A stretch of 64,000 nt of DNA, taken from Candidatus Nomurabacteria bacterium (GTDB lineage Bacteria > Patescibacteriota > Minisyncoccia > Phycocordibacterales > SBAW01). A program made the position numbers and the translations under genes. The notes beneath the pieces are model-generated. The model did not search any database and was not told the origin of the DNA. It worked only from the letters and a program-made list of their open reading frames with translations. The stretch is taken from contig CALQZS010000001.1 of NCBI GenBank assembly GCA_943349945.1, forward strand, positions 130,803 to 194,802, read 5' to 3'. Below are positions 3,115-32,592 of this stretch, one piece after another; the stretch's first letter is position 1; each line of letters begins with the position of its first letter.

Positions 3115-3195
3115 ATACATACCCACAAGTATACCCCCAAAATCAAAATCCCCACCGCAAGGGTGGGGATTTTGCATACACAAGAGTGCGAGTGC

Positions 3196-14027: not shown

Positions 14028-14036
14028 TGTGGTAAA

Positions 14037-14474: not shown

Positions 14475-14480
14475 AGTTTG

Positions 14481-15245: not shown

Positions 15246-15640
15246 AAACCGATCTTGGTTGCGATGAAGTAGGTTACCGCAGAAACAGACGCCGCGAGCA
15301 CTGCACCCCACACTAAGTCAACGATGGTTACAAGAAGCGGCCAATCTTTGGTGACGGCAAGGTTAGTAAGGTCGTACGTTGCATAACAAACCAAACCAAA
15401 TAGCGCACCGAACAAAAGTGCGTGCGTCCATGAATTCTTCTCTATGGCCGGCATAATTACAAAAACCACAAGACCGACAACAAACAAAAGATAAAAGATA
15501 ATAGCCGCCGTCCAGTTTACATCTGGCTTTAGGAGCGGACCGATTTGTTTAGCGTAAAAACCCTTTGCAACGAGTCCAAGCCACACCATGTCGATGGCAA
15601 AGAAAACAGGGAGTGCTATTGCATAGAGTTTTATGAACAT
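15242..15640 (-). CDS. small integral membrane protein (DUF2177-like)
   Basis: 132 aa, 4 TM helices. Confidence 0.55.
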   Translation of the reverse strand: MFIKLYAIALPVFFAIDMVWLGLVAKGFYAKQIGPLLKPDVNWTAAIIFYLLFVVGLVVFVIMPAIEKNSWTHALLFGALFGLVCYATYDLTNLAVTKDWPLLVTIVDLVWGAVLAASVSAVTYFIATKIGL

Positions 15641-15651
15641 AAAAGATAGGA

Positions 15652-16302: not shown

Positions 16303-16345
16303 ATAGCTTTAGTATATAATAGTATATACTAAACTATAATAATAT
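16297..16345. promoter_or_regulatory. divergent promoter region with TAGTATATA direct/inverted repeats (candidate operator)
   Basis: ttagtatataatagtatatactaaactataataatattagtttagtatat lies between the SOUL (-) and fasciclin (+) starts. It contains a 12-bp inverted repeat atatactaaact/agtttagtatat. Confidence 0.35.
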
Positions 16346-16393
16346 TAGTTTAGTATATGCATTAACAATATTTAATCAATTTAAAATAAATAT

Positions 16394-16795
16394 ATGCAAA
16401 ATATCGTAGAAACAGCTGTCGCAGCAGGATCATTTAAAACACTGGTCACTGCAGTGCAAGCGGCAGGATTAGTAGACACTCTATCTGGTGCAGGTCCCTT
16501 CACTGTATTTGCTCCAACTGATGAGGCTTTCGCCAAAATTCCAAAAGAGACTCTCGACGCAGTCCTTGCGGATAAAGCAAAGCTAACATCTATACTTACG
16601 TACCATGTGGTGGCAGGAAAAGTAATGGCTTCTGATGTAATGGGCCTGACTTCTGCAAAGACAGTACAAGGTGATGAAGTTAAAATAGAAACTGCAGATG
16701 GAGTTATGGTAAACGACGCCAAAGTAGTACAAACAGACATAGAATGCACAAACGGAGTAATCCATGTCATCGATTCAGTCTTGATGCCAAAATAA
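16394..16795 (+). CDS. fasciclin (FAS1) domain protein
   Basis: Typical FAS1 H1/H2 motifs ([10 protein letters not shown]...[11 protein letters not shown]). Confidence 0.8.
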
Positions 16796-16814
16796 ATACA
16801 TCCGAAATAAAAAT

Positions 16815-16844
16815 AAAAAACTCTAACTTTTGTTAGAGTTTTTT
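16815..16844. terminator. bidirectional rho-independent terminator
   Basis: aaaaaactctaacttttgttagagtttttt, with A-run and T-run on both sides, between convergent genes. Confidence 0.6.
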
Positions 16845-16855
16845 ATTTTTATTGA

Positions 16856-17245
16856 TTAGGCGTCTATTTTTGCCGCAAGAATAAAATCATTTTGAGAGAG
16901 TCCGTTAATTGCATGGGTGGACAGCGTGAGCTCTACAAATTTGTAGTTTTTCAGATATATGTCCGGATGATGCCCCTCTGATTCAGCCAAAACGCCAACC
17001 TTATTTACAAAAACAAGAGCTTCATTGAAGTCCTTAAAACTATATCGCTTGGCGATACTTTTAGCATCAAGCGAAATATCCCAGCCGGGAATTTGCTTGC
17101 ATAATATATCTGCCTCTATCTTTGAAAAAGGAATGACACCACCATCGCATGCCATGCATTTTTGTTGAGTCAGTGGCGAGTTAGTTTTAGGAGTAGGGGC
17201 CTGACTCTGTATAGTTGTATGTTCCATATGCTTGTAGTATAGCAA
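16856..17245 (-). CDS. phhB: 4a-hydroxytetrahydrobiopterin dehydratase (PCD/DCoH)
   Basis: EGHHPDI...ELTLSTHA motif. Confidence 0.8.
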   Translation of the reverse strand: MLYYKHMEHTTIQSQAPTPKTNSPLTQQKCMACDGGVIPFSKIEADILCKQIPGWDISLDAKSIAKRYSFKDFNEALVFVNKVGVLAESEGHHPDIYLKNYKFVELTLSTHAINGLSQNDFILAAKIDA

Positions 17246-17268
17246 AATTAAGAATGGCTACAAATTTT

Positions 17269-18939
17269 TTATTTCGTATCAATATGATTCCACGCAAAAC
17301 CCTTGTCTCCATACACTTTTTTACCTGGGTTTAAAATAGCAAGCGGGTCAAAAATATCTTTTGTCTTTTCAAAGAGACGTACGATCTCAGGGGTAAACAT
17401 CTGCGAAAGGTACGAGGTACGTAAAAGTCCGTCATTATGTTCTCCAGACATAGAACCTCCATACTGAAATACGAGAGTATAGACTTCATCCATGAGTGTA
17501 TGGAGAGTCTCAACTATTCCTTCTTTATGAATGTCAATAAGCGGAATAATATGAAAGTTTGCATCTCCCATATGTCCGGCCACAGTATAAATAAGATCAT
17601 ATTTCGAAAAAATAATTTCAAGTTTGGGAAGAAACTCCGGGAGATCTTTTGTGTGTACGACAATATCATCAATTGTGGGTGCCGTTCGATACCCTCGCAA
17701 CTTCTGGCGAAGCAGGTTGAAGCTTTCGCGCCTGAATGTCCAATACTTTTTTGCTTCTTGTTCCGAGTGCGTCAATGTAATAGGAAATCCGAATACCTTC
17801 ATCTCGTTATATGCTGACTGTACCTGCTCTGCAACTTCTTCTTCAGTATCCCCTGCAAATTCTGCCATGAGAATTATCTTTGGAACTCCGCCAGTGATTG
17901 CCATCCAAAACTCAGGCAAAAATTGGAACCCGAGCGTCAACATAGTACCCCCCATGCTTTTTGCAATTGAACCAAAGAATTTAATCGCTATTTTAAACGT
18001 ATGATCATCATAAGATTCGATGGTTTCAGGTGTATGTTTTAAAAGTCTTGGAATTATTTCTCCTAGTTGCGTTGTGGCTGGCAAAAACATAACGAGCATT
18101 CTGGAATGTTTTTTGGGGACAATTCCACTCAATGTCGCTTCAGTCACACAGGCAAGGGTTCCCTGACTGCCCACAACGAGCTTTGATAGGTCAAATACTC
18201 CTGATTCTTTATCGTAGACATTCCAAAGATAGTACCCTGAAGAATTTTTTGTTACTGTCGGTTTTGCTTGTTGCAGTACATCATAGTTGTCCTTTACAAG
18301 GGCAAATATCTCTCGATGAATGCGCCCGCTTTCAGTTTGTTCTTCGCATTTTGCGATAAGTTTCTCTGCATGAAGTGGTTCTAGAACATCTTCTTCTCCA
18401 TTTGCAAATACAACACGAAGCGAGCGAACATACTTTTCCGTCTTTCCATAGGTAAGTGTCTTTTCACCTCCTGAGTTATTAGAGACAATACCTCCAATCG
18501 CAGCCAAATCACGAGACGCCGGATAGCTTGGCAAAAGCCAGCCGTGCGCAAGAGTCTTTTTCTCAAAATCACTATAGTATACCCCCGGCTCTGTTATGGC
18601 TTCTGTGTCGGTGACAGAAAATACATGATTCATGTATCTCATTGTGTCTACGACGATGGATTCCGAAAGTGGGCCACCGGTCATACAGGTACCGGCGGCA
18701 CGCATGGTGAGGGATAACGGTACACCCTGATCTATATCTTTAGTTTTTTTTGCATGCACATAAGCAACAAGTTTTGCAATGTCTTCTTTACTTTTTGGGT
18801 AGACAACAATGCGGGGTTTTACATAAAAAAGGCTTGTGTCTCGCGCAGCTTTTTCTCGATCACTGTCTAAGATAGAAATATCTCCTTTGATTATTGTACG
18901 CAAATCACCAGCGACATCCGTATAAAAAATTTCATTCAT
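17269..18939 (-). CDS. FAD-linked oxidase (D-lactate dehydrogenase/glycolate oxidase GlcD-like)
   Basis: 556 aa with an FAD-binding PCMH domain and an FAD-oxidase C-terminal domain. Confidence 0.8.
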   Translation of the reverse strand: MNEIFYTDVAGDLRTIIKGDISILDSDREKAARDTSLFYVKPRIVVYPKSKEDIAKLVAYVHAKKTKDIDQGVPLSLTMRAAGTCMTGGPLSESIVVDTMRYMNHVFSVTDTEAITEPGVYYSDFEKKTLAHGWLLPSYPASRDLAAIGGIVSNNSGGEKTLTYGKTEKYVRSLRVVFANGEEDVLEPLHAEKLIAKCEEQTESGRIHREIFALVKDNYDVLQQAKPTVTKNSSGYYLWNVYDKESGVFDLSKLVVGSQGTLACVTEATLSGIVPKKHSRMLVMFLPATTQLGEIIPRLLKHTPETIESYDDHTFKIAIKFFGSIAKSMGGTMLTLGFQFLPEFWMAITGGVPKIILMAEFAGDTEEEVAEQVQSAYNEMKVFGFPITLTHSEQEAKKYWTFRRESFNLLRQKLRGYRTAPTIDDIVVHTKDLPEFLPKLEIIFSKYDLIYTVAGHMGDANFHIIPLIDIHKEGIVETLHTLMDEVYTLVFQYGGSMSGEHNDGLLRTSYLSQMFTPEIVRLFEKTKDIFDPLAILNPGKKVYGDKGFAWNHIDTK

Positions 18940-19154
18940 ACATTTATTATAACATTATCGGACTCATTTTACTTAGCGTTTGCTTCGAGTTTTTCTTCGC
19001 TGTATATACCAGTACACATAGAGAGAAAGTAGAAGGATTATATTCGGAATAAATATGATTGGTTGACCCCAGGATATTCCATTGATATGGAAGTCTGAAA
19101 TCGGCCACAAAAAAGGCGTTGGGAAAAAGGCAAAATCGTGTGTAGGTATATCAA

Positions 19155-19445
19155 CTAAAATATGAAGTGGCCACGCGAGCGTAAGCTTGGCAAAATGCTT
19201 TTTGCCAAGAATAACGCATAAACGACCAAGCTATGAGTAATACCATAGACGGTGAAGACGTACGGCGGAATCGTTTCTAAGCTTGGCCGACCCATTGCGC
19301 CACCAGAAACTAGATTTATTATAAAAAGAGGCGCGAACGCCAAGAGGTCTGGCCCTATACCAAAGAGAAATGCAGTCACATAATCCCGCCTGCGCATGCG
19401 ACCAAATGCAACACCTCCATATAATCCGTGAGAGATAATGTCCAT
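19155..19445 (-). pseudogene. possible truncated/frameshifted membrane-bound metal-dependent hydrolase (DUF457-like) remnant
   Basis: 96-aa ORF MDIISHGLYGG.... Additional hydrophobic reading frame continues after the stop in 18960-19150, with an overlapping alternative frame at 19231-19449. Confidence 0.3.
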
Positions 19446-19473
19446 ACATTTATTATACTATTTGTATGTGAAA

Positions 19474-20934
19474 TTATTTTTTAGACAGATACTCCTTTGC
19501 AATTTTTAAATAATTTTCTTTTTTCTTTTTTTCCATCTTATCAAAAAGTCTCGGCATCATCGATAGTCGATGATTACTTGTGAAAAAGTCACGGTGACTA
19601 GCTATGAAATTCCAATACAGTGCAGTCCACTTCTCTTCCCAATCGCCACCAGTATAATCTGACATTTTTTTAATGTAATTGCTACCCGAGATATATGGTT
19701 TGGTAGCAAAAATACCACCATCAGCGAACTGACTCATCCCATATACATTTGGTACCATTACCCAATCATACGCATCAACATACATTGCCATAAACCATTG
19801 ATACACATAATCGGGATTAACCTGAGAAAGCAACATAAAGTTACCGATAACCATCAATCGTTCGATATGATGATTGTATCCATAGTGCAGAGCTTTCTTG
19901 ATAGCGCTGTCGACCGGAGCAATACCAGTATCTCCAGTCCAAAATCCTATTGGCAAGTTGCGGGAATGTTTCCAAAAATTCTTCGTGCGCATGACGGCAC
20001 CATCACACTCATAGGAAGCGCGCATAAACTCACGCCACCCAATGATCTGTCGTACAAAACCTTCGAGTGAATTTATAGGTATAGCGTGAGTATCTGCATA
20101 TACTATTGCACTATCGATTACCTGCCTTGGGTCGAGCAATCCAATATTTATGAGAGCTGACAATGTAGAATGAAAAAGCCGTACGCTTTTCGTAGAAAGC
20201 GCGTCCTCATACACACCAAAATCTGCAAAGCGGTCTTCTAAAAATACCTGCAAAAATTTTTTGGCATCCTTGTGTGTATATGGTAGCCAGCAGGCTATCT
20301 CTCCATATTTTTCAGCTTGTATTGTATCGAGCCACTTCTTCATTTTTGATACATCAAAATCATTTTCAAAAACAGTATCCTTGGGGAGAGTTGTATCTCG
20401 AGCAAGTTTTTTTCGATTGTCTGCATCAAAGCTCCACGCTCCCCATCTGGGCTTTCCATGTCCGTCCATCAAGATACCCAAGTCCACTCGAATTTTCTTG
20501 TAGAACATCGCCATATTTTTCTTTGAGCTTTTGTATCTTGCTATTGATTCCTCCTTTGGCAAAATAAAAAGTGGTGACTCATACCAAACCCGCTTTATCT
20601 TGGAAGCTGTTATAGCCCGCTCCAAATAGAAGTCAGTAGTATCGACAATATGAAGTTCTTGTATCCCTTCTTTTTTTAAATAATCAAAAATATCTTTCGT
20701 CTTCGGATACTGTTCAATCGTCAGGCATTTTACTTTGTACCCCTCTTTTTTCAAAAGCTCTGCATATGCGCCCATACTTAATTTGTGCAAAATTAGCTTT
20801 TGATAATGAATGGGGTTGTGCGACAGAATCAAGGGCTCTTCAATCAAAAAAATAATCCGTGCTTTTTGTATAGCCGGTGATTTTATAAAAAGTTGATGAG
20901 GATAGACCAATGTTGCTTCTTTCATAGTATTCAT
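19474..20934 (-). CDS. cryptochrome/photolyase-related protein (COG3046-type)
   Basis: 486 aa with GWREF and NHHIERLMVIGNFMLL motifs, in an AT-rich gene. Confidence 0.8.
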   Translation of the reverse strand: MNTMKEATLVYPHQLFIKSPAIQKARIIFLIEEPLILSHNPIHYQKLILHKLSMGAYAELLKKEGYKVKCLTIEQYPKTKDIFDYLKKEGIQELHIVDTTDFYLERAITASKIKRVWYESPLFILPKEESIARYKSSKKNMAMFYKKIRVDLGILMDGHGKPRWGAWSFDADNRKKLARDTTLPKDTVFENDFDVSKMKKWLDTIQAEKYGEIACWLPYTHKDAKKFLQVFLEDRFADFGVYEDALSTKSVRLFHSTLSALINIGLLDPRQVIDSAIVYADTHAIPINSLEGFVRQIIGWREFMRASYECDGAVMRTKNFWKHSRNLPIGFWTGDTGIAPVDSAIKKALHYGYNHHIERLMVIGNFMLLSQVNPDYVYQWFMAMYVDAYDWVMVPNVYGMSQFADGGIFATKPYISGSNYIKKMSDYTGGDWEEKWTALYWNFIASHRDFFTSNHRLSMMPRLFDKMEKKKKENYLKIAKEYLSKK

Positions 20935-20937
20935 CTA

Positions 20938-21204
20938 TCAGGTTGATAGTATTAAAATCAAAATAGCGAAGTATACGATCAGATAAAAACGATAGAAATT
21001 AATCACCCGCAACTCTGCACTCTTCGTGCGCTGATGAAAGCCAAAAAGCACTTTGATCTCCTCCCAAAAAACGGGCTTTACATTAATCCACCAGCTATCA
21101 GTTTGATAGACCATCTTCCTAAATCGACTGCGAAACAATCCCAAAGGAAAACTCCAGATAAAAAACGCAACGATGGCAATCGTGTGTATGGTTATAGTAT
21201 CCAT
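20938..21204 (-). CDS. small membrane protein (translationally coupled to photolyase-related gene)
   Basis: 88 aa, two TM segments, with its stop 3 nt from the downstream start. Confidence 0.4.
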   Translation of the reverse strand: MDTITIHTIAIVAFFIWSFPLGLFRSRFRKMVYQTDSWWINVKPVFWEEIKVLFGFHQRTKSAELRVINFYRFYLIVYFAILILILST

Positions 21205-21325
21205 TTATGCCTCTTCAGTCCTTACTTCTATTATAAACTTTATTCTCTCAAGAGCTACCATTCCCTCCCCCTCCTTTTTGCGAACCTCGACCTTCAGGGG
21301 CAAAAGATACTTTGGCCATAAATTT

Positions 21326-22225
21326 TTACTCCACCGGACAGGTGTTTTTGCCCATCGCGGCGTAGAACCCACACCAGCTAAATATTGCTTCAAAGAATGC
21401 AAGGCCGGAGAAGAAGATGAGGATGGGGCTCCAGGTGGTGGTGATGGCCCATAGGAGCAATGCAATGCCAATGGCGAGGCGGACGAGTCGGTCGGACTTG
21501 CCGATATTTTTAGCAACTCCACGCACAGAGTTTTTAGCAACCTTTTTCAAAATCGCGCGGTAGACGAAGCCCACGATGAACGCAAGAATATATATAATGA
21601 CAATCAGTCCCCACCCAAAGGGCGAGAGGATAAAGCCGATTGGCGATTCGTTAAAAAAATCCTTTTTAATCTGCGGGATGAGCGTGAGTGCGTTTAAGCC
21701 TTCTTTGCCGTCAAACTTCTCTATCTCACCGATGGCGAGCGAGTACTTGCTGTCGTTGTTGGGGCTTGTCACACGGATCTCGTAGATGCCTACATCAGCA
21801 CGCGCTTTATACTCTGGTCCTTGCCAGTAGGTGTCGTAGCCAAATGGTTCAAAAAACTGTTTCCATGCAAATGTCGCGCCATCGAGCACGGCGATTTGCT
21901 TGCCGTCTTTTAGTACCACAGCGGAGACATCTTTCTTTTGCCCTGCAATGTCTGGCACCAAGACTCCGACATACAGATTAAACGCTTGCTTCGCATCTAT
22001 AGTATATACATCCGGCTCGCCCATGAGCTTGCCATAATATGCTTTGGAAACTTCGGGGTCAGTAACTGATGTAAGTCTATCCTCTGTAATTCGAGGCTGA
22101 TGTGCGGAAGCCAAGCTCGGAGTCAACGTAAATATAGAGACAAACAACGCAAGCAGCGTGAGTGATAGTAGTTTGGAATTTATGTTATATCCGAAAACGT
22201 TCAAGATGCACCTAGTATACAGCAC
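21326..22225 (-). CDS. secreted protein with C-terminal DUF2892-like transmembrane domain
   Basis: Signal peptide plus a C-terminal RLVRLAIG...SWCGFYAAMGKNTCP motif. Confidence 0.5.
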   Translation of the reverse strand: MLYTRCILNVFGYNINSKLLSLTLLALFVSIFTLTPSLASAHQPRITEDRLTSVTDPEVSKAYYGKLMGEPDVYTIDAKQAFNLYVGVLVPDIAGQKKDVSAVVLKDGKQIAVLDGATFAWKQFFEPFGYDTYWQGPEYKARADVGIYEIRVTSPNNDSKYSLAIGEIEKFDGKEGLNALTLIPQIKKDFFNESPIGFILSPFGWGLIVIIYILAFIVGFVYRAILKKVAKNSVRGVAKNIGKSDRLVRLAIGIALLLWAITTTWSPILIFFSGLAFFEAIFSWCGFYAAMGKNTCPVE

Positions 22226-22230
22226 CTAGT

Positions 22231-22599
22231 CTAGAAGTAAGGGATGAGTAAACTAAGTCCCTTCCCCATCAGAAAGCTGTATATCAGCAACCCAATGAAC
22301 GGTAGAGGCACCAGCCATAAAAACCATCTTGGATGGTCAGGTTTTTTTGAAAAAACCATGTACCAATTCAACGCAAATATAAGAGGTGTACAAATTGACA
22401 AGAGAGCACTTGTACCAAAACCGAGCAGTCCAAACACTTCCCCACTACTCCATACGAAAGAGTCGTCCTGCACAATAAACAAAAAGGCTACGCTCGACCA
22501 AACAACAGCTATTAGAAACACCTTTACTAAAAGCGCTTCGTAAATTCCAATAGCAGCCAAAACTATTTTTACAGGCGTGTTGATGGTGAATCTATGCAT
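22231..22599 (-). CDS. hypothetical membrane protein
   Basis: Start moved to ATG 22597-22599 (MHRFTINTPVKIV...), because the track ORF's N-terminus overlaps a tRNA on the same strand. Confidence 0.45.
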   Translation of the reverse strand: MHRFTINTPVKIVLAAIGIYEALLVKVFLIAVVWSSVAFLFIVQDDSFVWSSGEVFGLLGFGTSALLSICTPLIFALNWYMVFSKKPDHPRWFLWLVPLPFIGLLIYSFLMGKGLSLLIPYF

Positions 22600-22627
22600 G
22601 TAGGTAATTATATACCCATAACCGTTG

Positions 22628-22714
22628 CGGAGAGAGCGAGATTCGAACTCGCGGGCCCAATTAAGGGCCGACAGTTTAGTAAACTGTTGATTTAAACCAC
22701 TCATCCATCTCTCC
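22628..22714 (-). tRNA. type II (long variable arm) tRNA, Ser-like, anticodon apparently ACU
   Basis: Acceptor GGAGAGA/TCTCTCC, T-arm GCGAG-TTCGAAT-CTCGC, variable arm GGCCC-TTAATT-GGGCC, and anticodon stem ACAGT/ACTGT with loop TTACTAA. Confidence 0.7.
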
Positions 22715-22926
22715 ATATATTCGCACTGCTCAAATGGAGCTGCTCGGCGCAGATCGATGGAATCGTGGTCGGCACATGGTGCCGGCTTGAGAAGAAGCAG
22801 TTCTTCTCTTCGCCCATCTCATCCATCTCTCCTTGCCCTTGAGGATACTACAGTATATAGAGGAGCTCAATTAAAGCCTTTTTGAGCGTGTAAAGTAGCC
22901 CCTATTATGGTACTGTGGCGTGTATT

Positions 22927-23011
22927 GGAGACGTGTCAGAGTGGTCGAATGTGCCTCCTTGCTAAGGAGGTAGGGCGCAAGCCCTCGTGGGTTCGAATCC
23001 CACCGTCTCCG
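22927..23011 (+). tRNA. tRNA-Ser (GCU)
   Basis: Acceptor GGAGACG/CGTCTCC, anticodon loop TTGCTAA between CCTCC/GGAGG, long variable arm, and T-arm GTGGG-TTCGAAT-CCCAC. Confidence 0.85.
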
Positions 23012-23049
23012 CAAAGCTAAATTTTGATATATTCTCCTATCTAAATTTT

Positions 23050-23230
23050 GCTTATGTGTGAACGGGAGAGGGATTCGAAGGACGGAAGAAAAGCTCTGGG
23101 AGAGCTTTTCTGAGTCGGGGTCGCGAGATTTTTCAGCAGAAAAATACTTGTGACCGAATCCCACTGTCCACAAATACTACGCGGCGTAGAATTGAGTCGA
23201 AGCCGAATCGTTTTAATCGTCTCCGCTTAG
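23050..23230. repeat. degenerate tRNA-end fragments (possible att-site scars)
   Basis: gggagagggattcgaagg resembles the end of the minus-strand tRNA. gaccgaatcccactgtccaca and atcgtctccgc resemble the 3' end of tRNA-Ser(GCU), TTCGAATCCCACCGTCTCCGCA. Confidence 0.35.
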
Positions 23231-23298
23231 TTTTTTGTAGTGTTCTACTGTAGAGCATTTTATGTGGTATAAACAAGCCATATCATTAATTTTTTAAT

Positions 23299-23931
23299 AT
23301 GTCTCGACAAACGATATTAATATTAGTCCTTATTGTTTTGGTGGTTGGCGTAAGCGGGTATTGGTATTTTAGTCACCAAAGCAAGGTTACCGACGTACCT
23401 ACAGAGGTGGTTGCAACGACAAATACTACCCATGTAGAAGAAGTAAAGGTGGAAAATAATCGAAAAAGTGCCGTAACGTCTAATGGTTTGGAATTTGACC
23501 CGGCTAAGGTACAGCCCGGGGAAAAATTCGGTGCGTTTACAGTTATTGCTTCGAGCGCTTATACGATTGGCGATGAACACTCTTACTCAGTAAGTTTCAA
23601 AGGACCTGTAAATATCCAGGGTGTATTAAACAATTTTGAGCCTAGTATGTGTGGTGCAGTACTGGAGATTTCTACATCAACTTCCGAAACCTTGCCTAGA
23701 GTGAGCGGTGAAAAGGTGGGGAGCATGAATGTATACCTTGACCTAGATGGTTTGCCAGAGGCAGAGCGTGTTACTTATACGAGCGCCGGTTTTACAACCC
23801 CTTCCGGGCAACTACTCCAAGAGGGTGATGTGTTAGAAGTAACTGTTGATACGTTTTTGGCTTCGCACCAAGGGAAAGATTGTAGCGGCAAGAGGATACA
23901 GGTCACCTCATTTAAGAAGCTTTCTATCTAA
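23299..23931 (+). CDS. hypothetical secreted/membrane-anchored protein
   Basis: 210 aa with an N-terminal TM/signal anchor. Confidence 0.5.
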   Translation: MSRQTILILVLIVLVVGVSGYWYFSHQSKVTDVPTEVVATTNTTHVEEVKVENNRKSAVTSNGLEFDPAKVQPGEKFGAFTVIASSAYTIGDEHSYSVSFKGPVNIQGVLNNFEPSMCGAVLEISTSTSETLPRVSGEKVGSMNVYLDLDGLPEAERVTYTSAGFTTPSGQLLQEGDVLEVTVDTFLASHQGKDCSGKRIQVTSFKKLSI

Positions 23932-24022
23932 CTGCGCAGCAAAATAGAAAACTTCGCCTCAGTACATATTTGTGACCGAGTCTCACTCTCTCTCCGCCAT
24001 ACATATACAACTTTTTTAAGAG

Positions 24023-24075: not shown

Positions 24076-25257
24076 ATGAGCAACATCAATAGACCAAAAA
24101 TAGGTCGCTACGTAGCCCAAAAAGAGGGGTTCAAATCCTTCACCCCTTATGACTTTCCACCCAAGGAAGGCTTTGTTATTAGTCCTAAATTGTATAAAAA
24201 ACTTGAGGATGCGATTCGACTAGTCGGCAAGCTTGACGGTATCACTCGCCTGCTACCCGACAAAGACTTCTTTCTTCTTATGTTCATCAAAAAGGACGCC
24301 GCCTATTCAAGTCAAATAGAAGGCACCAAAGCTACCCTACAGGATGCCGTGGCGGCACCAGTTACAGAAGAAAAATCACGTCGACATCCTGATGTAGATG
24401 ACATAGTCCATTATGTTGAGGCCGTAAACTATGGCATCAAACGAAGCGAGACACTCCCTATTTCTCTGCGGTTAGTACGAGAGATACACGAGAAGTTAAT
24501 GACAGGTGCACGCGCCACACAACATGCCTATCCTGGCGAATTTAGACGTTCCCAAAATTGGATTGGGGGTAAAATTCCTCAAGATGCCTCCTTTGTGCCA
24601 CCTGCGCCGCACGATATGGACAAATCACTGGATGATTTGGAAAAATTCATCCATGCAAAAGATGATTACCCCTCACTTATAAAAGCGGGTCTTTTGCATG
24701 CCCAATTCGAAACAATTCACCCATTTACAGACGGCAACGGACGTACAGGACGCATGCTTATTGCTATGTACATGCACCACACAAAACTTCTTGAATTACC
24801 TATATTGTATCTATCTAGTTACTTCAAAAAGTATCAAAAACTCTACTACCAAAAGCTTCAGAATTACCATGAGGAAGATTCCGATATAGAAGGTTGGCTA
24901 GAGTTCTTTCTTGAAGGTGTTGCTGAAATTGCTGAATCTTCAATCGAAACCTGTACTAATATCACAGCCCTTCGAGACCGAGACTTTGCGAAAATGCAAA
25001 AACTTGGCAAACAGTCTGCTGAATCAACACTCGAAGTGGTGCGCAAACTCTTCAGCCAACCAATAGTCGGGGTTGCAGAAATAATAAATTGGACTGGGTT
25101 TAGCCCACAAGGGGCGTACAACATGATTGAGCGACTTAAAGCTCTAGGAATTCTAGAGCCTCTTGGTGATGCAGAATATGGACAAAAATACATCTATGCA
25201 GACTACTACAGGCTCTTTGATGATACTTTTAATACAACAAAAGTAAGCAAAAAATAG
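24076..25257 (+). CDS. fic: Fic family protein (AMPylator/adenylyltransferase), class II with N-terminal inhibitory motif
   Basis: Active-site HPFTDGNGRTGR (HxFx(D/E)GNGRxxR) and the inhibitory helix motif SSQIEG ((S/T)xxxE(G/N)). C-terminal wHTH-like region. Confidence 0.85.
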   Translation: MSNINRPKIGRYVAQKEGFKSFTPYDFPPKEGFVISPKLYKKLEDAIRLVGKLDGITRLLPDKDFFLLMFIKKDAAYSSQIEGTKATLQDAVAAPVTEEKSRRHPDVDDIVHYVEAVNYGIKRSETLPISLRLVREIHEKLMTGARATQHAYPGEFRRSQNWIGGKIPQDASFVPPAPHDMDKSLDDLEKFIHAKDDYPSLIKAGLLHAQFETIHPFTDGNGRTGRMLIAMYMHHTKLLELPILYLSSYFKKYQKLYYQKLQNYHEEDSDIEGWLEFFLEGVAEIAESSIETCTNITALRDRDFAKMQKLGKQSAESTLEVVRKLFSQPIVGVAEIINWTGFSPQGAYNMIERLKALGILEPLGDAEYGQKYIYADYYRLFDDTFNTTKVSKK

Positions 25258-26149: not shown

Positions 26150-26155
26150 CCCACC

Positions 26156-26187
26156 GCCGGCCCACAAGCCGGCGTTTCTTTTTTTGT
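26156..26187 (+). terminator. rho-independent terminator
   Basis: cgccggcccacaagccggcg followed by TTTCTTTTTTT. Confidence 0.55.
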
Positions 26188-26188
26188 A

Positions 26189-27643
26189 TTAAAACTCGAT
26201 CTTTCTATATTCAGGTTTAAACGCACACCCTGCACATGCCACGTCGGACACAGCAGCACCTTGCGCAATCGCCTCGCCCAACCAGCCGGTAAGCCGCGTC
26301 GTGTCTTCCGTATAGTCACTCGAGCGCAACACAATAACCGCCACTCTGTGTTTTTCTGGCCCGTTTGATACGGTAAATACCGACACCATGGTCTCGCCTG
26401 CCGCAGTCGTCTGCCCCACCTTGCCGCCCACAAAGCTTTTTTCGCCCGAAAAGATATTGAGGTTTTGGAGCGCATATACCGCGCCATCGTTTGCTTTAAT
26501 CGTCTTGGCCGGAGCGCGCGTAATATCCCACACAAACGACTTTTTATTTGCCAAGTACATAGCTAAACGAAACAGATCGTCGGGAGTTGATTTGTTGTAT
26601 GGCGACATGCCGCTTGGGTCGGCAAACTGGGTCGCAGTCATCCCCAGTGCCTCTGCGGTAGTATTCATCCATTCTACAAAACCCTTCGTACCATAAAAAC
26701 TGGCCAACATGTCGGCCACGTGGTTGTTAGACTCCATCAAAAGTGGGTACAGCAAGTCGCCGATAAAAAATCTTTTCTGCTCTGTACTGCTTGCAAGCGC
26801 GCGCGACAGCTCCCCTTCCCGCACGGGCACCTCCTTTTCAAAACTGATTATCTCGCTGGCCACCAGTGCGGTCATGAGCTTGGCTACAGACGCCACAGGC
26901 ATCTCTCGGTCTGCGTTGCGCTCGAGGTACACATCGCCGGAGTCTATGTCGGCCACCAAGTAGGCTTCGGCCGAAACAAGCGGCGCTTCCAACTGTGCCA
27001 ACACCCACGGCGTAGTAGACGCCGCCCCATGCGCATCATAGACAAACAATCCCGTACCCTTGTCGGCAAAAGCAAAAATCTCTTGTGCATCTTCGGTCGA
27101 GAGCCGTATGCACCCACCCGAGAATGTCGAGGCCACCGGCGTGCCGTCTGGATAGGTTGGCCACCCATGGATAAAGTAGTTGCCATAAAACTGCATGCTG
27201 TAGGGCATGTTGACGCTCCCTATGGTCGAGAAGTGATTCTCTTCTTTTGTTTGTACCGAATAAAATCCGCTTGGCGTCTCCCACGGCGTCCCCGGCTTGC
27301 CTTTGGTCAAAATGGGGTACGTGGCGGTGGTGGTGCCATTTTCATACAAAGACACCTGCATAGCATCCAGGTCGGCGACCACAAACTTGCCTGTGTGCGG
27401 CACCACCTGTGCAATAGACAGCGCGTTAATTACCCGCTTGGGTGTGCGCGGCGTTATTACGGGTGTGGACGTCGCAAGCGGCACTTCCGCAACAGTCGCC
27501 ACAGATTGTGTGTTTGGCCATGTTTGCAAGTACAGCAGCCCCGCACGCCCACCCAACCCCACCACAAGCACTAGCGCCACAAAAATACCCACAAAGTACA
27601 AACCTCGCTTGTCGACTGCATGCTCTATACCACCGTACTCCAT
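26189..27643 (-). CDS. fused L,D-transpeptidase (YkuD) / D-alanyl-D-alanine carboxypeptidase (PBP5-like serine peptidase) membrane-anchored protein
   Basis: N-terminal TM helix. The LDT catalytic region is HGWPTYPDG...STFSGGCIRL. The DD-CPase motifs are SVAK (SxxK), SNN (SxN) and GKVGQT (KTG-like). Confidence 0.75.
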   Translation of the reverse strand: MEYGGIEHAVDKRGLYFVGIFVALVLVVGLGGRAGLLYLQTWPNTQSVATVAEVPLATSTPVITPRTPKRVINALSIAQVVPHTGKFVVADLDAMQVSLYENGTTTATYPILTKGKPGTPWETPSGFYSVQTKEENHFSTIGSVNMPYSMQFYGNYFIHGWPTYPDGTPVASTFSGGCIRLSTEDAQEIFAFADKGTGLFVYDAHGAASTTPWVLAQLEAPLVSAEAYLVADIDSGDVYLERNADREMPVASVAKLMTALVASEIISFEKEVPVREGELSRALASSTEQKRFFIGDLLYPLLMESNNHVADMLASFYGTKGFVEWMNTTAEALGMTATQFADPSGMSPYNKSTPDDLFRLAMYLANKKSFVWDITRAPAKTIKANDGAVYALQNLNIFSGEKSFVGGKVGQTTAAGETMVSVFTVSNGPEKHRVAVIVLRSSDYTEDTTRLTGWLGEAIAQGAAVSDVACAGCAFKPEYRKIEF

Positions 27644-27644
27644 A

Positions 27645-28472
27645 CTATATATGTGGCTGCAGCACAGGCACCAAAGCGCCCTCTGGGGTTATGTCGTAGG
27701 TGATGCCCAACGGGTCTTGCGGCAGCTCGCGCAACACACCCGCCCGCACCAAGTCTTCTAGAGTACTTGGGTACGCCCCCACAGCGCTGTGGTATTGCTC
27801 GACCGCCTGCTCCAGCATGCTGCGCAGCTCTATATGCAGCACATTATGTAGCGCCTGGGCGCGCACCACCTCGTCGGCAGAGTTTTCATAAATAGCTATC
27901 CAGATTTGTTTTGTCTCTTCTCGGATGTCACCCCGCAACCCATAGTTGTGCGCAGACAGTTTGATACCCTCGGGCACGCCCGGGGTGTTTGCAGCGATGT
28001 TCATATACAGTGCTGCATTTGTTGAGTCTTTGAGCGCCAGATGGTACGCAGTGGCTACGTAGTATGGTATGCGCCAGTCGCCCAAGTTTTGTGCGACTCC
28101 TTGCCGGCCAATGGCTATGGCGCGCTCTGTTGCCTCTTGGTCGTTGTGCGGCGCCATCAAAGTTACAAAAGCATACAGGTAGCTAAACTGCGGGTCCAGA
28201 GCCACCATGGCCGCTATGCGCATGGCCGCACTGTCGAGCGCCGCGCCGCCTGTGCCGCCTATGTCTTGTATGAGCCCGAGCCAAAGCAGCGACGCCATAG
28301 CCGAAGACAAACCCAGCGTAGCGCCACGCAACACCGGGGCCGGGAGTGGCTGGTGCGGTTGGTATGGCACCGACGTTTGGTATTTGTCGTGTACCAGCTG
28401 CACAGCAGCCACCGCACACAAGAGTGCCACCAGCACTGCGCCGCATATGGTTTGTATATGCCACTTTGCCAT
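27645..28472 (-). CDS. hypothetical membrane-anchored protein
   Basis: 275 aa with an N-terminal TM helix. It is packed 1 nt from the downstream LDT/CPase gene. Confidence 0.45.
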   Translation of the reverse strand: MAKWHIQTICGAVLVALLCAVAAVQLVHDKYQTSVPYQPHQPLPAPVLRGATLGLSSAMASLLWLGLIQDIGGTGGAALDSAAMRIAAMVALDPQFSYLYAFVTLMAPHNDQEATERAIAIGRQGVAQNLGDWRIPYYVATAYHLALKDSTNAALYMNIAANTPGVPEGIKLSAHNYGLRGDIREETKQIWIAIYENSADEVVRAQALHNVLHIELRSMLEQAVEQYHSAVGAYPSTLEDLVRAGVLRELPQDPLGITYDITPEGALVPVLQPHI

Positions 28473-28475
28473 AGG

Positions 28476-29246
28476 CTATAGTTCGCGCTTACCCAGCAAA
28501 AGCGACGCGCCAAACAAAAGCACCCCCGCGTAGAGCACCGCGTAGGCAACAGTGGTGAGCATGTGCGCCGTGGTGGGCACCCCGCCGTACAGCACCAACT
28601 CGCGCACGTTAAACTTTTCGAGGTTGGGCAATATGTAGTAGAGGCTCGTCAGCACCGGCTGCAGCGCGGCAGGCGCCGACAGCGCCGGCAAGAGCGACAA
28701 AGAATGCCCGATGTATAAACAGACAATAGTGTAGACCGTGGACGCAAGCGGCCGCGCAAAGGTAGAAAAAAATATAGCCAACGCGATGATGAGCCCTAGC
28801 TCCAACAATTCGTACCCCACGGCAAACATAGCCCCCGTATCTACCCCGCCGCCGCCGTACCACACCAGCCCCAGGTATACCGCGAGCATCCCCGCCACCG
28901 ACACCGCCACGCTGGCAAGCAGGCCACTAAACTTGCCCACCACCATTTGCCAACGGCTCACCGGCTTGGACAAAATAAAGTATGCGGTTTTTCTTTCGAG
29001 CTCTTTAAACACCAAGGACGTCGCCAAAAAGATGGTGATGAGCAAGCCAAAGAGATACATCCCCGCCAACCCCAAACTCCGCACTATGTGCAAGTTTTCG
29101 CCCAGCGATATCGAACCCAAAAACAGCGTAAAGGTGCTAAAGATAAACGCAAAAATCCAGATGCCGTACAGCACCTTGTCGCGCACATTTTCTATAAACG
29201 TGCTCTGCATCAATACAAACAGGGTATGTGCTATGCGGGATATCAT
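28476..29246 (-). CDS. ABC-2 family transporter permease
   Basis: 256 aa with 6 TM segments. It overlaps the ATPase gene by 4 nt. Confidence 0.7.
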   Translation of the reverse strand: MISRIAHTLFVLMQSTFIENVRDKVLYGIWIFAFIFSTFTLFLGSISLGENLHIVRSLGLAGMYLFGLLITIFLATSLVFKELERKTAYFILSKPVSRWQMVVGKFSGLLASVAVSVAGMLAVYLGLVWYGGGGVDTGAMFAVGYELLELGLIIALAIFFSTFARPLASTVYTIVCLYIGHSLSLLPALSAPAALQPVLTSLYYILPNLEKFNVRELVLYGGVPTTAHMLTTVAYAVLYAGVLLFGASLLLGKREL

Positions 29247-29953
29247 GCTGTTTTGGTTATGGCGGTAATGGTGTCTACAAACTGCTCTTCGAGCGAGCGT
29301 CCGTGGGTAAACGCGTCGACCGCCCCCGCATACACCAGTGAACCCCGGTGCAAGATGCCTATCTGGTCGCAGATTTCTTCCATATCAAACAAAATATGCG
29401 AGTTAAAGAAAACTGTTTTGCCTTGTGCCTTGAGGTCGAGGATTATTTTTTTTAATTCCAAGCGGCCAATAGGGTCCAAGCCGTCGAGCGGCTCATCCAA
29501 AAAGATATAGTCGGGGTCGTTGACTATTGCTTGGGCAAACCCCAGGCGCTGCTTCATACCTTTGGAGTAGTCGGCTATGGTGAGGTCGCGCGCCTCGTAT
29601 ATCCCCACCCGCTCTAACAACTCGCCGCAGGCCTGTTTTGTTTTAGGGTAGCGAAAGAGGTGCGAACAAAAACACAAAAACTCTAGACCCGTCAGGTGGC
29701 CATAGTAGTGCGGCGTCTCGGGCATAAAGCCGATGCGCTCGCGCACCGAGCGGTGCGTCGGCGCCACTTTGTCTATCAAAATAGAGCCTGCATTTGGCTG
29801 GTTGAGCCCCACCAGCATTTTGATGGTGGTGGTTTTGCCCGCGCCGTTTTGCCCCAAAAAACCAAACACCGTGCCTTGCGGCACGGTAAACGAAACGTTA
29901 TCGATCACAACTCGACCAAGGATTTTTTTGTGTATACCCTGCACTTCTAGCAT
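29243..29953 (-). CDS. ABC transporter ATP-binding protein
   Basis: Walker A GQNGAGKTTT, signature LSGGMKQRL-like (YSKGMKQRL), and Walker B IFLDEP. Confidence 0.9.
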   Translation of the reverse strand: MLEVQGIHKKILGRVVIDNVSFTVPQGTVFGFLGQNGAGKTTTIKMLVGLNQPNAGSILIDKVAPTHRSVRERIGFMPETPHYYGHLTGLEFLCFCSHLFRYPKTKQACGELLERVGIYEARDLTIADYSKGMKQRLGFAQAIVNDPDYIFLDEPLDGLDPIGRLELKKIILDLKAQGKTVFFNSHILFDMEEICDQIGILHRGSLVYAGAVDAFTHGRSLEEQFVDTITAITKTA

Positions 29954-29985
29954 AGAGCTATTATACGCAGTGCAGGTGCCCCGTG

Positions 29986-31104
29986 CTAGTCATTGTCTGG
30001 CAGCAAATCAATATCGCCCACGCGTGGCAGCGCGCCATCAAAGCGTCGCTCCGCCTTGAGGTACGTCTCGAGTTCTACAGCGCTCTGCAGCGCAGTATCA
30101 AACTGCACCACCGCCGTGTCATAGTCGGCTGCACCAAAGGCAGTGTCGCCCGCACTCATCAGCACGCTGGTCGAAGCAAGCACGGTTTGGACATACTCTG
30201 CCAATTTTTCATCTTTTAGAGAAAGAGCGTGGATACGCCCAAGCACCAAACGCGTACGCGCCTTCAATTGTGCTGCAACAGCTTGGCCACTAAGCGACCC
30301 TTCGTCTGGCGCCGGCGCAGCCACCTGCGGCACTGGCTCGCTGGTTGTTGCCGCTATGGACATCACTTTGGCTGCTTTTGCAGCCACTGCCACAGGCTCG
30401 CTCCGGCGCTCCAAGACCACACGCTTACTTTCTTTGACAGGCTTGTTTGCCTCTGCTGCTGCGGTGGCGTGCATCCGCACCCGTACCGCAAACTTTCGCG
30501 ATGTGTTTTTTGTTTCTTCGTCGGGACTTTGTTCGCCCAAGTGGCTCAACACTGCATCGTTGACCGCCAAGGACGACGCGAGTTGCGTGCTAATTTGTGC
30601 TGCGGCACCTGGGTCCTCTATCTCGAGCACCTCTGTCAAAGACTGCGCTGCCGCCACATGCTCGTCGAGCTGCAGCTGCAGCTGCTCTGCCACGGTGGTC
30701 GTAAACTTGCCCTGCGAGGCAAGATCTTGTGCCTCTTCTACGCGACGCTCGGCCAATACTGCTTGCGCCTCGGCTTTGGCGGTGGGCGTTGTGGCAAGTG
30801 CTATTTCTACAAACTCGTTTACGTGGATCTTCACCGCGTACAGCAAGTCGCCAGGCAATGCGGTTTGTGCCGCGTAGCTGGTGCCGCCGCCGCTACCCGC
30901 TACAAACACAAACAATATGAGTGCCGCGAAGGTACGCTGCAATACTACATGGTTGAATATAAAAAAGTGATACGGACTTTGCACCAAGGGAGACGCGGGG
31001 TTAAGCGCCATGCGCTCGCTCAGGCGGGCACGCAAAGTAGCCTTCTCTTGTACAGTAAGGCGGACACGCAAACCTTCGTTTTTAAATTCTTCGGTAAATT
31101 TCAT
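29986..31104 (-). CDS. putative anti-sigma factor (single TM, Ala/Glu-rich coiled-coil extracytoplasmic domain)
   Basis: ATGA overlap with the upstream ECF sigma gene. N-terminal cytoplasmic segment, then a TM helix at about residues 60-80. Confidence 0.5.
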   Translation of the reverse strand: MKFTEEFKNEGLRVRLTVQEKATLRARLSERMALNPASPLVQSPYHFFIFNHVVLQRTFAALILFVFVAGSGGGTSYAAQTALPGDLLYAVKIHVNEFVEIALATTPTAKAEAQAVLAERRVEEAQDLASQGKFTTTVAEQLQLQLDEHVAAAQSLTEVLEIEDPGAAAQISTQLASSLAVNDAVLSHLGEQSPDEETKNTSRKFAVRVRMHATAAAEANKPVKESKRVVLERRSEPVAVAAKAAKVMSIAATTSEPVPQVAAPAPDEGSLSGQAVAAQLKARTRLVLGRIHALSLKDEKLAEYVQTVLASTSVLMSAGDTAFGAADYDTAVVQFDTALQSAVELETYLKAERRFDGALPRVGDIDLLPDND

Positions 31105-31637
31105 GATTGTGCTTCTGGTTCCATGAGCGTACGGAGCTTTTTGAGCCCGCGGTGTATCCGCACCGATACCACATTTTCGCTCTCTTCTATCGACTCTGCA
31201 ATCTCTTTTGGACTAAAGCCCTCTATATAGCGCAGCGCCAACACCTCGCGGTATGGGTCGGCCAACTTGGCCAGCGCCGCGAGCGCGCGCTTGCCGTCGA
31301 AGCGGTCCATAGCAGCTTCGAGCGCGTTTGTCTCGTCGGCAGGTAAAAGGGACTCCACCGTCTCGCCGCCCTCGCCGCTTTCGACCATCTGTTCGAGCGA
31401 TGTGGTTTTGTGCTTGCGGTACTCGTCGACAATAAGGTTATGTAGCGTGCGGTAAAAGAAGGGACGGTAGTCGTGGATTTCTTCGCCGCGCGAGACATAG
31501 GCCCACGCACGCAGAAAAGTCTCTTGCGTCAAGTCGAGCGCCCGCTCCCTGTCGGAGAGCCTGAGTGTCGCATGCCGGAAAAGCTCGTCGGCATACCGCT
31601 CAAAGGCAGCAGTAAATTGTTTTTCTGTGTCTACCAT
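31101..31637 (-). CDS. ECF-type RNA polymerase sigma factor (sigma-70 family)
   Basis: Region 2 (DLTQETFLRAW) and region 4 (YIEGFSPKEIAESIE...VRIHRGLKKLR) motifs. Confidence 0.85.
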   Translation of the reverse strand: MVDTEKQFTAAFERYADELFRHATLRLSDRERALDLTQETFLRAWAYVSRGEEIHDYRPFFYRTLHNLIVDEYRKHKTTSLEQMVESGEGGETVESLLPADETNALEAAMDRFDGKRALAALAKLADPYREVLALRYIEGFSPKEIAESIEESENVVSVRIHRGLKKLRTLMEPEAQS

Positions 31638-31710
31638 ATATAGAGACGGATGAGAGCCTCTACTCTTTCATCGCCTACCTATTCTACCCTATACAACCCG
31701 TACACTAGAC

Positions 31711-31745
31711 GCAAAAACACCACCCCTAAACAGGGTGGTGTTTTT
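31711..31745. terminator. bidirectional rho-independent terminator (terminates the minus-strand hammerhead-containing transcript)
   Basis: caccacccctaaacagggtggtg flanked by an A-run and a T-run (gcaaaaa / ttttt). Confidence 0.6.
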
Positions 31746-31855
31746 AAACATCCATAGGGCCACGAGCCATGCACAGTGGTTAGAGGAGAGAGTTTTTTGC
31801 TCCGTCTTGGCTAGTGCAATTTGGAGCTTCTCACACAGCGTGACTCATGACCCTA

Positions 31856-31909
31856 TAGAGATTTTTACCTTTTCGTCCTTTTGGACTCATCAGCCCGGGC
31901 ACACACCCG
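31856..31909 (-). ncRNA. hammerhead ribozyme, type III topology
   Basis: Minus-strand RNA: GACUUUC^CUCGGG-UGUGUG-CCCGGG-CUGAUGA-GUCC-AAAA-GGAC-GAA-AAGGU. All core nucleotides are present: C3-A9 CUGAUGA, G12A13A14, A15.1:U16.1, cleavage-site C17, and G10.1:C11.1. Stem I is a 6-bp hairpin, stem II a 4-bp hairpin, and stem III is an open 5-bp helix. Predicted cleavage is between window positions 31903/31902. Confidence 0.7.
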
Positions 31910-32009
31910 AGGAAAGTCGGACGACACGCAGCGTTGTTGCGCCGTGTCGCCCGTTAGCCCCGGACTAGCCGGGGCGGCCGGGGATGATTTTGCGGTAATC
32001 ATCCTGTTG

Positions 32010-32402
32010 TTAGGTGCCGCATATAGCGGCCACGAACTGCTTCGCAAGTTCTTGGCGATTCAGTTCTGACGCCCGATCGTCGCTGGGGACGCACGGGGAC
32101 TTAGTTAACCCGTACGCCAAAGAAGCGTAACTCACCGCCATCGACGGATTGTAACCGCCCCAAAAGCGAGCGGCCTCAGCCGCTGCCAGAACGGCGAACT
32201 TCTTCGCCGCCTGTGAGTCCTCAATGGACACATCGAATGGTCGGTCAGCGTGACCGAAAACCCCAAAAAGGGCCCTTTCGATTTCATAGAGTACCCGCTC
32301 TGAAATCTCTCCACCCACTATCATCCATTGGACGACCTGTGGGTTGGGCATCCACAGCCCAGCGACAACAAGCGCTGCCATTCGCGCATGTACTATTGTC
32401 AT
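32010..32402 (-). CDS. hypothetical protein (130 aa) embedded in the ribozyme/leader locus
   Basis: RBS ACGGAGAG 5 nt before the ATG. Third-position GC is about 59%, comparable to a neighbouring real gene (Maf, about 63%). No recognisable family. Coding status needs confirmation. Confidence 0.45.
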   Translation of the reverse strand: MTIVHARMAALVVAGLWMPNPQVVQWMIVGGEISERVLYEIERALFGVFGHADRPFDVSIEDSQAAKKFAVLAAAEAARFWGGYNPSMAVSYASLAYGLTKSPCVPSDDRASELNRQELAKQFVAAICGT

Positions 32403-32592
32403 TTTACTCTCCGTTTTTTTGAGCGTTGGATTTTGCCAACGCTCGGGTTTAGAACATCAGGGTGCAATTTCTTGCGATCCCTCTTGCCGCACCGAGCATT
32501 AGAGTGCATCCATCTGCACTAGGCAGACAGGCTCATGACTCGGTAAGGCGAAGAGGAACAACAAAGGTGATCTTTCGATCGTTTGTTATTTC

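Follow-up and report, generated by a model that had tools for sequence, protein, structure and literature searches.

The six minus-strand genes packed into positions 26189–31637 of a 64-kb window (the whole stretch of DNA analysed, 64,000 nucleotides of contig CALQZS010000001.1 from a Candidatus Nomurabacteria bacterium) are, in our judgement, probably a lineage-specific, end-to-end set of three independently conserved modules, and not a conserved stress operon. The host is a Patescibacterium of the Parcubacteria type. In the direction of transcription, the genes encode an extracytoplasmic function (ECF, group 4) sigma factor of 178 residues (31101–31637); a single-pass membrane protein of 372 residues with an extracytoplasmic DUF5667 domain (29986–31104); the ATPase (236 residues, 29243–29953) and the ABC-2 type permease (256 residues, 28476–29246) of an ATP-binding cassette (ABC) transporter; a membrane-anchored helical-repeat protein of the tetratricopeptide repeat (TPR)-like kind, here called p5 (275 residues, 27645–28472); and a protein of 484 residues (26189–27643), here called the fusion, in which a YkuD domain is followed by a Peptidase_S11 domain. 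This last protein appears to be the most interesting element, as its motifs are those of a bifunctional peptidoglycan enzyme that would hard-wire a DD-peptidase to the L,D-transpeptidase pathway. An earlier note on this DNA had called the same six tightly packed genes, and the list of open reading frames (ORFs) and the Pfam matches bear out these calls. The note went on to read them as one cell-envelope-stress regulon, for which we would substitute three modules with at least two predicted promoters, linked in one clade.

In the arrangement that we propose, the first module would be the sigma factor and its DUF5667 partner, a pair transcribed from a G(T/A)AAG-N16-CGTC promoter and regulating itself. 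The second would be the ABC-2 transporter (ATPase, permease and the TPR-like accessory p5), starting at its own TATAAT-N6-ATG in a 32-nucleotide (nt) gap. The third would be the membrane-anchored wall enzyme, which elsewhere stands alone; here, with its spacer and its -10 box lost, it would now be carried on the transporter transcript. The six genes would then make up two transcription units, sigma-DUF5667 and ABC-ABC-2-p5-fusion. The transporter and fusion genes would come under ECF control only by read-through over the 32-nt gap, as a recent accident of gene order and not as a conserved regulon.

Gene order and promoters of the three modules

Fusion neighbourhoods were compared in one genome per species, giving 53 loci that encode relatives, and the ORFs of these loci were searched with the six window proteins. 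The full six-gene order recurs in only one of them, a Nomurabacteria metagenome-assembled genome (L001) whose fusion is 77% identical. In about 50 other species, the fusion gene has no sigma, DUF5667, ABC-2 or p5 gene alongside, and clustering of all flanking ORFs at the fusion loci brought out no conserved neighbour. All six genes are also found in the close relatives L056 and L057 (p5 63% identical), whereas L060 and L061 carry the ABC, ABC-2, p5 and fusion genes, followed by Maf, without the sigma pair. Co-occurrence of the gene order in other genomes, which the earlier note had proposed as a check, thus speaks against a single regulon: judged from these genomes, the six-gene order is confined to a narrow lineage and is not a conserved unit.

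The sigma factor and the DUF5667 protein, by the same kind of comparison, are a conserved pair. A metagenome scan with sigma as the query gave 14 orthologous loci (53–69% identity), and the DUF5667 gene comes next in all 12 that have readable downstream DNA. No transporter or fusion gene follows in any of the 10 orthologous loci whose sequence continues for 0.7 kb or more past the DUF5667 gene; the usual genes there encode an EamA-type membrane protein and secreted Tyr-rich or PKD-like proteins. Only L076, of the same lineage as the window (sigma 95% identical), has the ABC, ABC-2, p5 and fusion genes downstream of the pair. The sigma factor contains the sigma-2 and sigma-4 domains only (Sigma70_r2, 41.9 bits, and r4_2, 50 bits, in Pfam; TIGR02937, 84.6 bits against a cutoff of 42.9, in NCBIfam), and its length agrees with that of ECF factors (~180 residues). 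Its stop codon is overlapped for 4 nt by the start of the DUF5667 gene. The DUF5667 domain (41 bits) is the sole Pfam match of the partner protein and lies in its extracytoplasmic part; one hydrophobic helix, read from the sequence at about residues 58–78, leaves an N-terminal cytoplasmic segment of only ~55 residues. Of the single-pass putative anti-sigma factor described in the earlier note, the topology stands, together with the overlapping start and the pairing in 12 of 12 loci, but the Pfam search gave no recognised cytoplasmic anti-sigma domain (zf-HC2 or RskA, for example), so that the role as anti-sigma of the adjoining sigma, which we consider probable, is read from the conserved pairing. 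We found no searchable literature on 'DUF5667'.

The transporter genes form a trio. The ATPase matches ABC_tran (PF00005, 102 bits), with DrrA, lantibiotic-protection and GldA as nearest NCBIfam subfamilies, all below their cutoffs; the permease matches ABC2_membrane_2 (PF12679, 49.8 bits against a cutoff of 27.2) and is of the ABC-2 type; p5 has no Pfam match and belongs to a tiny family (13 matches). ABC_tran and ABC2_membrane_2 genes precede the p5 gene at 46–49% p5 identity (P0130, P0132 and P0129) and even at 28% (P0133), and these four contexts lack both the sigma pair and the fusion. Within this family, then, the ABC, ABC-2 and p5 genes always travel together, with p5 as the constant third partner of the transporter.

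We note that the cluster lies between genes that recur. The window order is RecG, malic enzyme, sigma, DUF5667, ABC, ABC-2, p5, fusion and Maf. At L025, RecG and malic enzyme are followed by sigma and DUF5667, with the fusion gene convergent; on the P0129 contig they are followed by ABC, ABC-2 and p5, with Maf further on. These common anchors indicate that different subsets of the modules occupy one anchor site. At L060 (fusion 79% identical), a conserved 120-nt element, whose window counterpart at 31746–31866 lies just upstream of a terminator, is joined straight to the ABC promoter, without the terminator, sigma or DUF5667. The block of terminator, sigma and DUF5667 genes therefore behaves as an insertion or deletion.

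A predicted ECF-type promoter, GAAAG-N16-CGTC (31645–31669, minus strand, ending 7 nt before the ATG), is located upstream of the sigma gene, where the earlier note had proposed to look for one. The upstream regions of orthologous sigma genes share G(T/A)AAG, exactly 16 nt and CGTC(T/A), ending 4–7 nt before the ATG. The motif is present in the window and at 16 further orthologous loci, with 13 distinct sequences in all, including those of the window and L025. The short distance to the ATG suggests that the sigma mRNA is probably leaderless or nearly so, and the promoter presumably drives its own sigma pair. A search for further copies, also suggested in the earlier note, gave no second exact match in the window (one occurrence, against 0.73 expected by chance), and a scan with one mismatch allowed was uninformative (17 matches, against 23.5 expected). 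The motif is missing in front of the window's ABC, p5 and fusion genes, and upstream of all fusion genes in L002–L053.

The second predicted promoter is a TATAAT -10 box at 29960–29965 (minus strand), 6 nt before the ABC ATG and inside the 32-nt gap. The same box precedes the ABC gene in L056 and L057 (N6), L060 (N8) and L054 (N7, at a corrected start), making four lineages with the window. Among the 74 window ORFs, -10-like hexamers peak 6 nt before the start codon (7 genes, against 0–2 at most other offsets), and Shine-Dalgarno-like motifs precede only five genes. A TATAAT abutting the ATG is on this count the normal start of a transcription unit in the host, and leaderless mRNA appears to be the norm for the first genes of such units. 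As far as sequence can show, the box is the transporter unit's own promoter and gives a leaderless mRNA. The earlier note had named separate transcription of the genes as evidence against its single unit, and the conserved TATAAT-N6-ATG before the ABC gene points, with the same proviso, to exactly that. The fusion gene also tends to carry its own box elsewhere: in 22 of 39 cases, TAnnnT lies 6–10 nt upstream of the start codon; L060 has TACAGT-N7. A hairpin in the 5' end of the ABC gene (29867–29888, minus strand; 9 bp, GC-rich, GCAA loop) was considered as an attenuator and rejected, since it is not kept in L056, L060 or L054; its U-run simply encodes VFGFLG, and it is probably fortuitous.

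Could the six genes nevertheless form one ECF-driven envelope-stress operon, in which wall stress makes the anti-sigma release the sigma factor and all six genes are driven from 31645–31669? Export would then be raised and cross-linking switched to the 3-3 type, with the TATAAT at 29960–29965 giving basal expression only. Tight packing on one strand would fit such an operon (from sigma to fusion, the ORF list gives overlaps of 4 nt at the first and third junctions, and gaps of 32, 3 and 1 nt at the second, fourth and fifth), but the genes are linked in a single narrow clade only. L001, L056, L057 and L076 keep the order, but in L060 the run from ABC to fusion is there and the sigma cassette is missing. 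The ECF promoter is conserved, but so is the ABC promoter, and no other gene of the cluster, nor any fusion gene in L002–L053, has the ECF motif before it. The window fusion, whose start forms a stop-T-ATG junction with the p5 gene, has no -10 box of its own in the 1-nt gap, whereas the fusion of the sister lineage L001/L056 keeps a TAAAAT-N6-ATG in a 29-nt gap. The gap between the DUF5667 and ABC genes, which contains no terminator, also agrees with a single operon; on balance, we hold that explanation to be unlikely.

Four points weigh against the arrangement of three modules. The order persists in two lineages (the window and L001/L056) with proteins diverged to 58–78% identity, which suggests some stability, and the L025 fusion gene lies ~0.9 kb from the orthologous sigma pair, which hints at a non-random association within the subclade. 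As no terminator lies in the 32-nt gap, transcripts from the ECF promoter probably run on into the transporter genes, possibly with physiological effect. Finally, all of the promoters are predicted from motif position and conservation. The wider caution is that tight packing on one strand of a small, dense genome is not evidence for a functional operon. Two by-products should be of use in annotating Patescibacteria genomes: a defined candidate ECF promoter for one of their sigma families, and the apparently leaderless first genes of transcription units.

The YkuD–Peptidase_S11 fusion

Both catalytic domains proposed in the earlier note are found in one membrane-anchored protein of 484 residues. 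An N-terminal transmembrane helix (about residues 12–40) and a disordered linker are followed by the YkuD domain (residues 86–197, window 27053–27388, minus strand; PF03734, 66.4 bits against a cutoff of 23.4), the Peptidase_S11 domain (residues 219–439, window 26327–26989, minus strand; PF00768, 104 bits, cutoff 27.6) and, at the C-terminus, a tail with CxxC...YRKI. The AlphaFold2 model (predicted local distance difference test 82.9, predicted template modelling score 0.73) has the N-terminal transmembrane helix, a disordered linker at residues 43–71 and two folded domains. In a Foldseek search, no solved chain spans both domains (template modelling (TM) score on the query at most 0.45).

The motifs named in the earlier note (HG...SGGCIRL, SVAK, SNN and KVG) are present and conserved in homologues. 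The YkuD catalytic residues are His159 and Cys178; the S11 domain carries Ser252xxLys255, Ser305xAsn307 and Lys408-Val-Gly410. In an alignment of 121 family members, His159, Gly160, Cys178 (in SGGCIRL), Ser252 and Lys255 are invariant, Ser305 is kept in 120 and Asn307 in 117. The third box of the penicillin-binding protein (PBP) type, Lys408-Val409-Gly410 (codons at 26414–26422), aligns with the KTG of 6muq, and its middle residue is Val, Ala or Ile in 119 members and Thr or Ser in two. The fusion thus has the SxxK and SxN motifs of S11 low-molecular-weight PBPs and departs from them at K-[T/S]-G. The C-terminal tail C-x-x-C-x(5-6)-[YHF]-R-K-I-x-x (residues 470–484, window 26189–26235) is kept family-wide, with the CxxC invariant.

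Judged from record titles and the few organism names that sources give, the fusion gene is widespread in Patescibacteria, where by its contexts it is a stand-alone gene, and it represents a large uncharacterised family. At least 1653 homologues are found in a set of 5.8 billion proteins, the best 120 of which are all ~480 residues long and full length, with both domains; all named source organisms are Patescibacterium, Parcubacterium or Paceibacterota members. At E ≤ 1e-30 there are 541 clusters (50%-identity representatives), the top 150 of which mostly span both domains. Two homologues of ~780–800 residues (P0147 and P0164) are triple fusions of YkuD, Peptidase_S11 and a CapA-like PGA_cap domain (244 bits). 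The S11-YkuD fusion is not described in the searchable literature, where YkuD with Peptidase_S11 led to work on E. faecium only, and a 2025 review of L,D-transpeptidases does not mention fusions.

We propose that the PBP7-like serine DD-peptidase domain would yield tetrapeptide stems, through release of the terminal D-Ala or cleavage of 4-3 cross-links, and that the adjacent YkuD domain would take these stems as acyl donors and form 3-3 cross-links near the membrane. The earlier note had described a PBP5-like D,D-carboxypeptidase. The S11 domain is there; the PBP5 type is not. Pfam gives no PBP5_C match, the anchor is the N-terminal transmembrane helix and not a C-terminal amphipathic one, the NCBIfam equivalogs DacA, DacC and DacD score 29–36 bits against cutoffs of 610–765, and the nearest relatives are PBP7-type enzymes and single-domain DacB.

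It is quite possible that the S11 domain is a PBP7-like DD-endopeptidase and not a carboxypeptidase, in which case existing 4-3 cross-links would be cut and re-linked as 3-3 while nascent pentapeptides stayed untrimmed. The best NCBIfam match is indeed the DD-endopeptidase PbpG (PRK11669, 1.5e-23), but with a score of 83 against an equivalog cutoff of 294. Likewise, the best sequence matches in the PDB, 6muq and 6azi, are PBP7-type DD-endopeptidases (1e-17), but the single-domain DacB enzymes that come next, the DD-carboxypeptidases Rv2911, Rv3330 and Lmo2812, are equally close in structure, as is the Streptomyces K15 DD-transpeptidase. The missing PBP5_C domain fits an endopeptidase as well; specificity, however, is not readable from sequence.

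The YkuD domain might instead make no 3-3 cross-links and attach a protein to peptidoglycan or exchange the terminal residue, as the E. coli YkuD enzymes ErfK, YbiS and YcfS do, which would turn the fusion into a trimming-plus-anchoring enzyme; we consider this quite improbable, as the label 'lipoprotein-anchoring transpeptidase ErfK/SrfK' that sources give to some homologues is automatic, the clustering of flanking ORFs linked no candidate anchored substrate to the fusion gene, and all of these activities need a tetrapeptide donor, so that the coupling logic would be unchanged.

Two cautions apply to the enzymatic steps that we propose. The activities of both domains are assigned from motifs alone, and with K-V-G as its third box, the S11 domain may follow a different chemistry. 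Experimental knowledge of the cell walls of Patescibacteria is extremely scant. The strict conservation of both active sites, joined in one protein, leads to the prediction that the wall is built or remodelled through 3-3 cross-links. More speculatively, and with little confidence in the whole, the fusion could be the main peptidoglycan cross-linker of Parcubacteria-type Patescibacteria, membrane-tethered, coupling DD-cleavage to L,D-transpeptidation and making 3-3 cross-links the default in the walls of a large radiation of uncultured bacteria; K-V-G and CxxC would then mark a new mode of substrate handling or regulation, with ECF read-through in the window lineage.

DNA upstream of the sigma gene and in the flanks

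A strong intrinsic terminator upstream of the sigma gene, noted earlier, is confirmed at 31713–31745 (minus strand), with a 14-bp stem, a U-run, a folding free energy of -29.6 kcal/mol and a z score of -5.5. A compensatory loop and stem change is seen in L057/L001. The terminator closes the upstream unit and insulates the sigma gene. Between it and the ECF promoter, a sigma-70-like -10 box, TAGAAT (31681–31686, minus strand), lies ~10 nt upstream of the ECF -35 element; the matching position holds TAGAAT in L062 and L064 and TACAAT in L071. The box is possibly a basal promoter. In the window (31645–31675, minus strand) and in these three loci, the ECF -35 region and spacer form an inverted repeat, whose arms covary between loci (GATGAAAGAG/CTCTCATC; GACTGAAAG/CCTTCAGTC; GGATGAAAGGG/CCCTTTCATCC). 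If transcripts start from the upstream TAGAAT box, the repeat could fold as a hairpin in their leader; alternatively, a dimeric regulator could bind to it.

Over ~1 kb (31451–32462), the window DNA is 97–100% identical to L056, and near-identical in L001 and L057 where the contigs reach, whereas the adjoining genes are only 50–80% identical. Within this tract are a 130-residue ORF and the noncoding region, together with the terminator, the ECF promoter and the initial third of the sigma gene. The sigma protein is 95% identical, against 58–78% for the other five proteins. A constrained RNA upstream of sigma was rejected, because the near-identity runs into coding sequence, synonymous sites included; for the same reason, the tract is better read as recombination and looks like a recent event. 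In the noncoding DNA upstream of sigma, the only Rfam match is a hammerhead below threshold. This is a type III match (31 bits, against a gathering score of 48.5) at 31865–31919 (minus strand) and at L056 2833–2887, ~230 nt upstream of sigma and on its strand; L060 lacks it. The match shows a perfect hammerhead-like core (CUGAUGAG-GUCC AAAA GGAC-GAAA) and a UC cleavage site, but a weak stem III. Directly after the motif, L056 has a ~630-nt insertion (2915–3546), bounded by a 29-nt duplication of window 31836–31864, with no convincing ORF and no Rfam match, which may be a mobile or self-cleaving element.

At L068, a gene located 4.4 kb downstream of the orthologous sigma and encoding a secreted GH18 + PG_binding_1 protein has an exact ECF motif (12363–12387, plus strand) 2 nt upstream of its ATG. 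As a single case, this is compatible with chance; the gene is possibly a true regulon member. The C-terminus of p5 resembles the GspG pseudopilin motif, although the Pfam T2SSG match is weak (E 0.07–0.18 in 4 of 14 members) and is a hint only. For the most distant p5 homologue (L058/L059, the P0133 context), the genes flanking the trio are of the prepilin N_methyl type or encode a large TPR protein. The transporter may be linked to pilin-like surface proteins.

At the other end of the cluster, a GC-rich hairpin (26155–26174) lies 14 nt past the fusion stop, with a T-run on the plus strand only. It therefore serves the convergent small ORF or Maf unit as a terminator and is possibly also a two-way stop. 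Further away, a low-GC island at 14000–24000 (0.39–0.46, against 0.52–0.56 elsewhere) ends in two divergent tRNA-Ser genes at 22627–22714 (minus strand) and 22927–23012 (plus strand), one of which has the unusual anticodon ACT, and beyond the pair lies a Fic/DOC gene (24076–25257, plus strand). The island region may have been acquired.

Comparison with known systems

The functional statements made here draw throughout on sequence and comparative data, and known systems set the frame for them. Like the Bacillus-type SigW, SigM and SigX pairs, module 1 has a two-domain sigma factor, a co-oriented gene for a membrane partner and a predicted promoter with an AAC-like -35 element and a CGTC -10 element at 16-nt spacing. 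Unlike in those pairs, the partner is recognised only as DUF5667, the promoter abuts the ATG (leaderless), and the equivalog scores are far below their cutoffs. The earlier note had also compared the cluster with a bacitracin or bceAB-like module. The likeness to BceAB/BceRS does not go beyond the general idea of an ABC transporter beside an envelope-stress regulator: BceB is a large FtsX-type permease under two-component control, whereas the window permease is a 256-residue ABC-2 protein (PF12679, with no FtsX match in Pfam) with a TPR-like accessory, and the cluster contains no two-component genes.

The S11 part of the fusion is ~25–30% identical to the PBP7/PbpG-type and single-domain DacB enzymes, with Foldseek TM scores of 0.77–0.82 on the target. 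What these enzymes (6muq, 6azi, Rv2911, Rv3330 and Lmo2812) share with the fusion is limited to the S11 catalytic domain, with its SxxK and SxN motifs; unlike the fusion, they are stand-alone, have the canonical KTG and lack a YkuD domain. A wall peptidase joined to YkuD is also found in PDB 4xxt from Clostridium, whose depositors name it as a Zn-dependent amidase/peptidase, of the cell wall hydrolase/DD-carboxypeptidase family, fused to an ErfK/YkuD domain. Its YkuD part matches fusion residues 84–202 (E 6e-5), but its partner domain is a metallopeptidase and not a serine S11 penicillin-binding domain, and it is much smaller (261 residues).

The nearest functional parallel is the well-established pathway in which separate proteins act in turn, a DD-carboxypeptidase making the tetrapeptide donor for an L,D-transpeptidase (PMC3386183; PMC13344953). 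E. faecium DdcP or DdcY with Ldtfm, and C. difficile DacA/DacC with Ldt enzymes, likewise have a DD-peptidase supplying tetrapeptide donors to YkuD enzymes, and DdcP is likewise an S11 enzyme, although, unlike the fusion, it carries PBP5_C. In both species the two activities reside on separate proteins, whereas in the window they would share one membrane-anchored chain, with K-V-G in place of K-T-G and a CxxC tail. The fusion could thus serve as a compact model for the hand-over of substrate between the DD-peptidase and L,D-transpeptidase steps.

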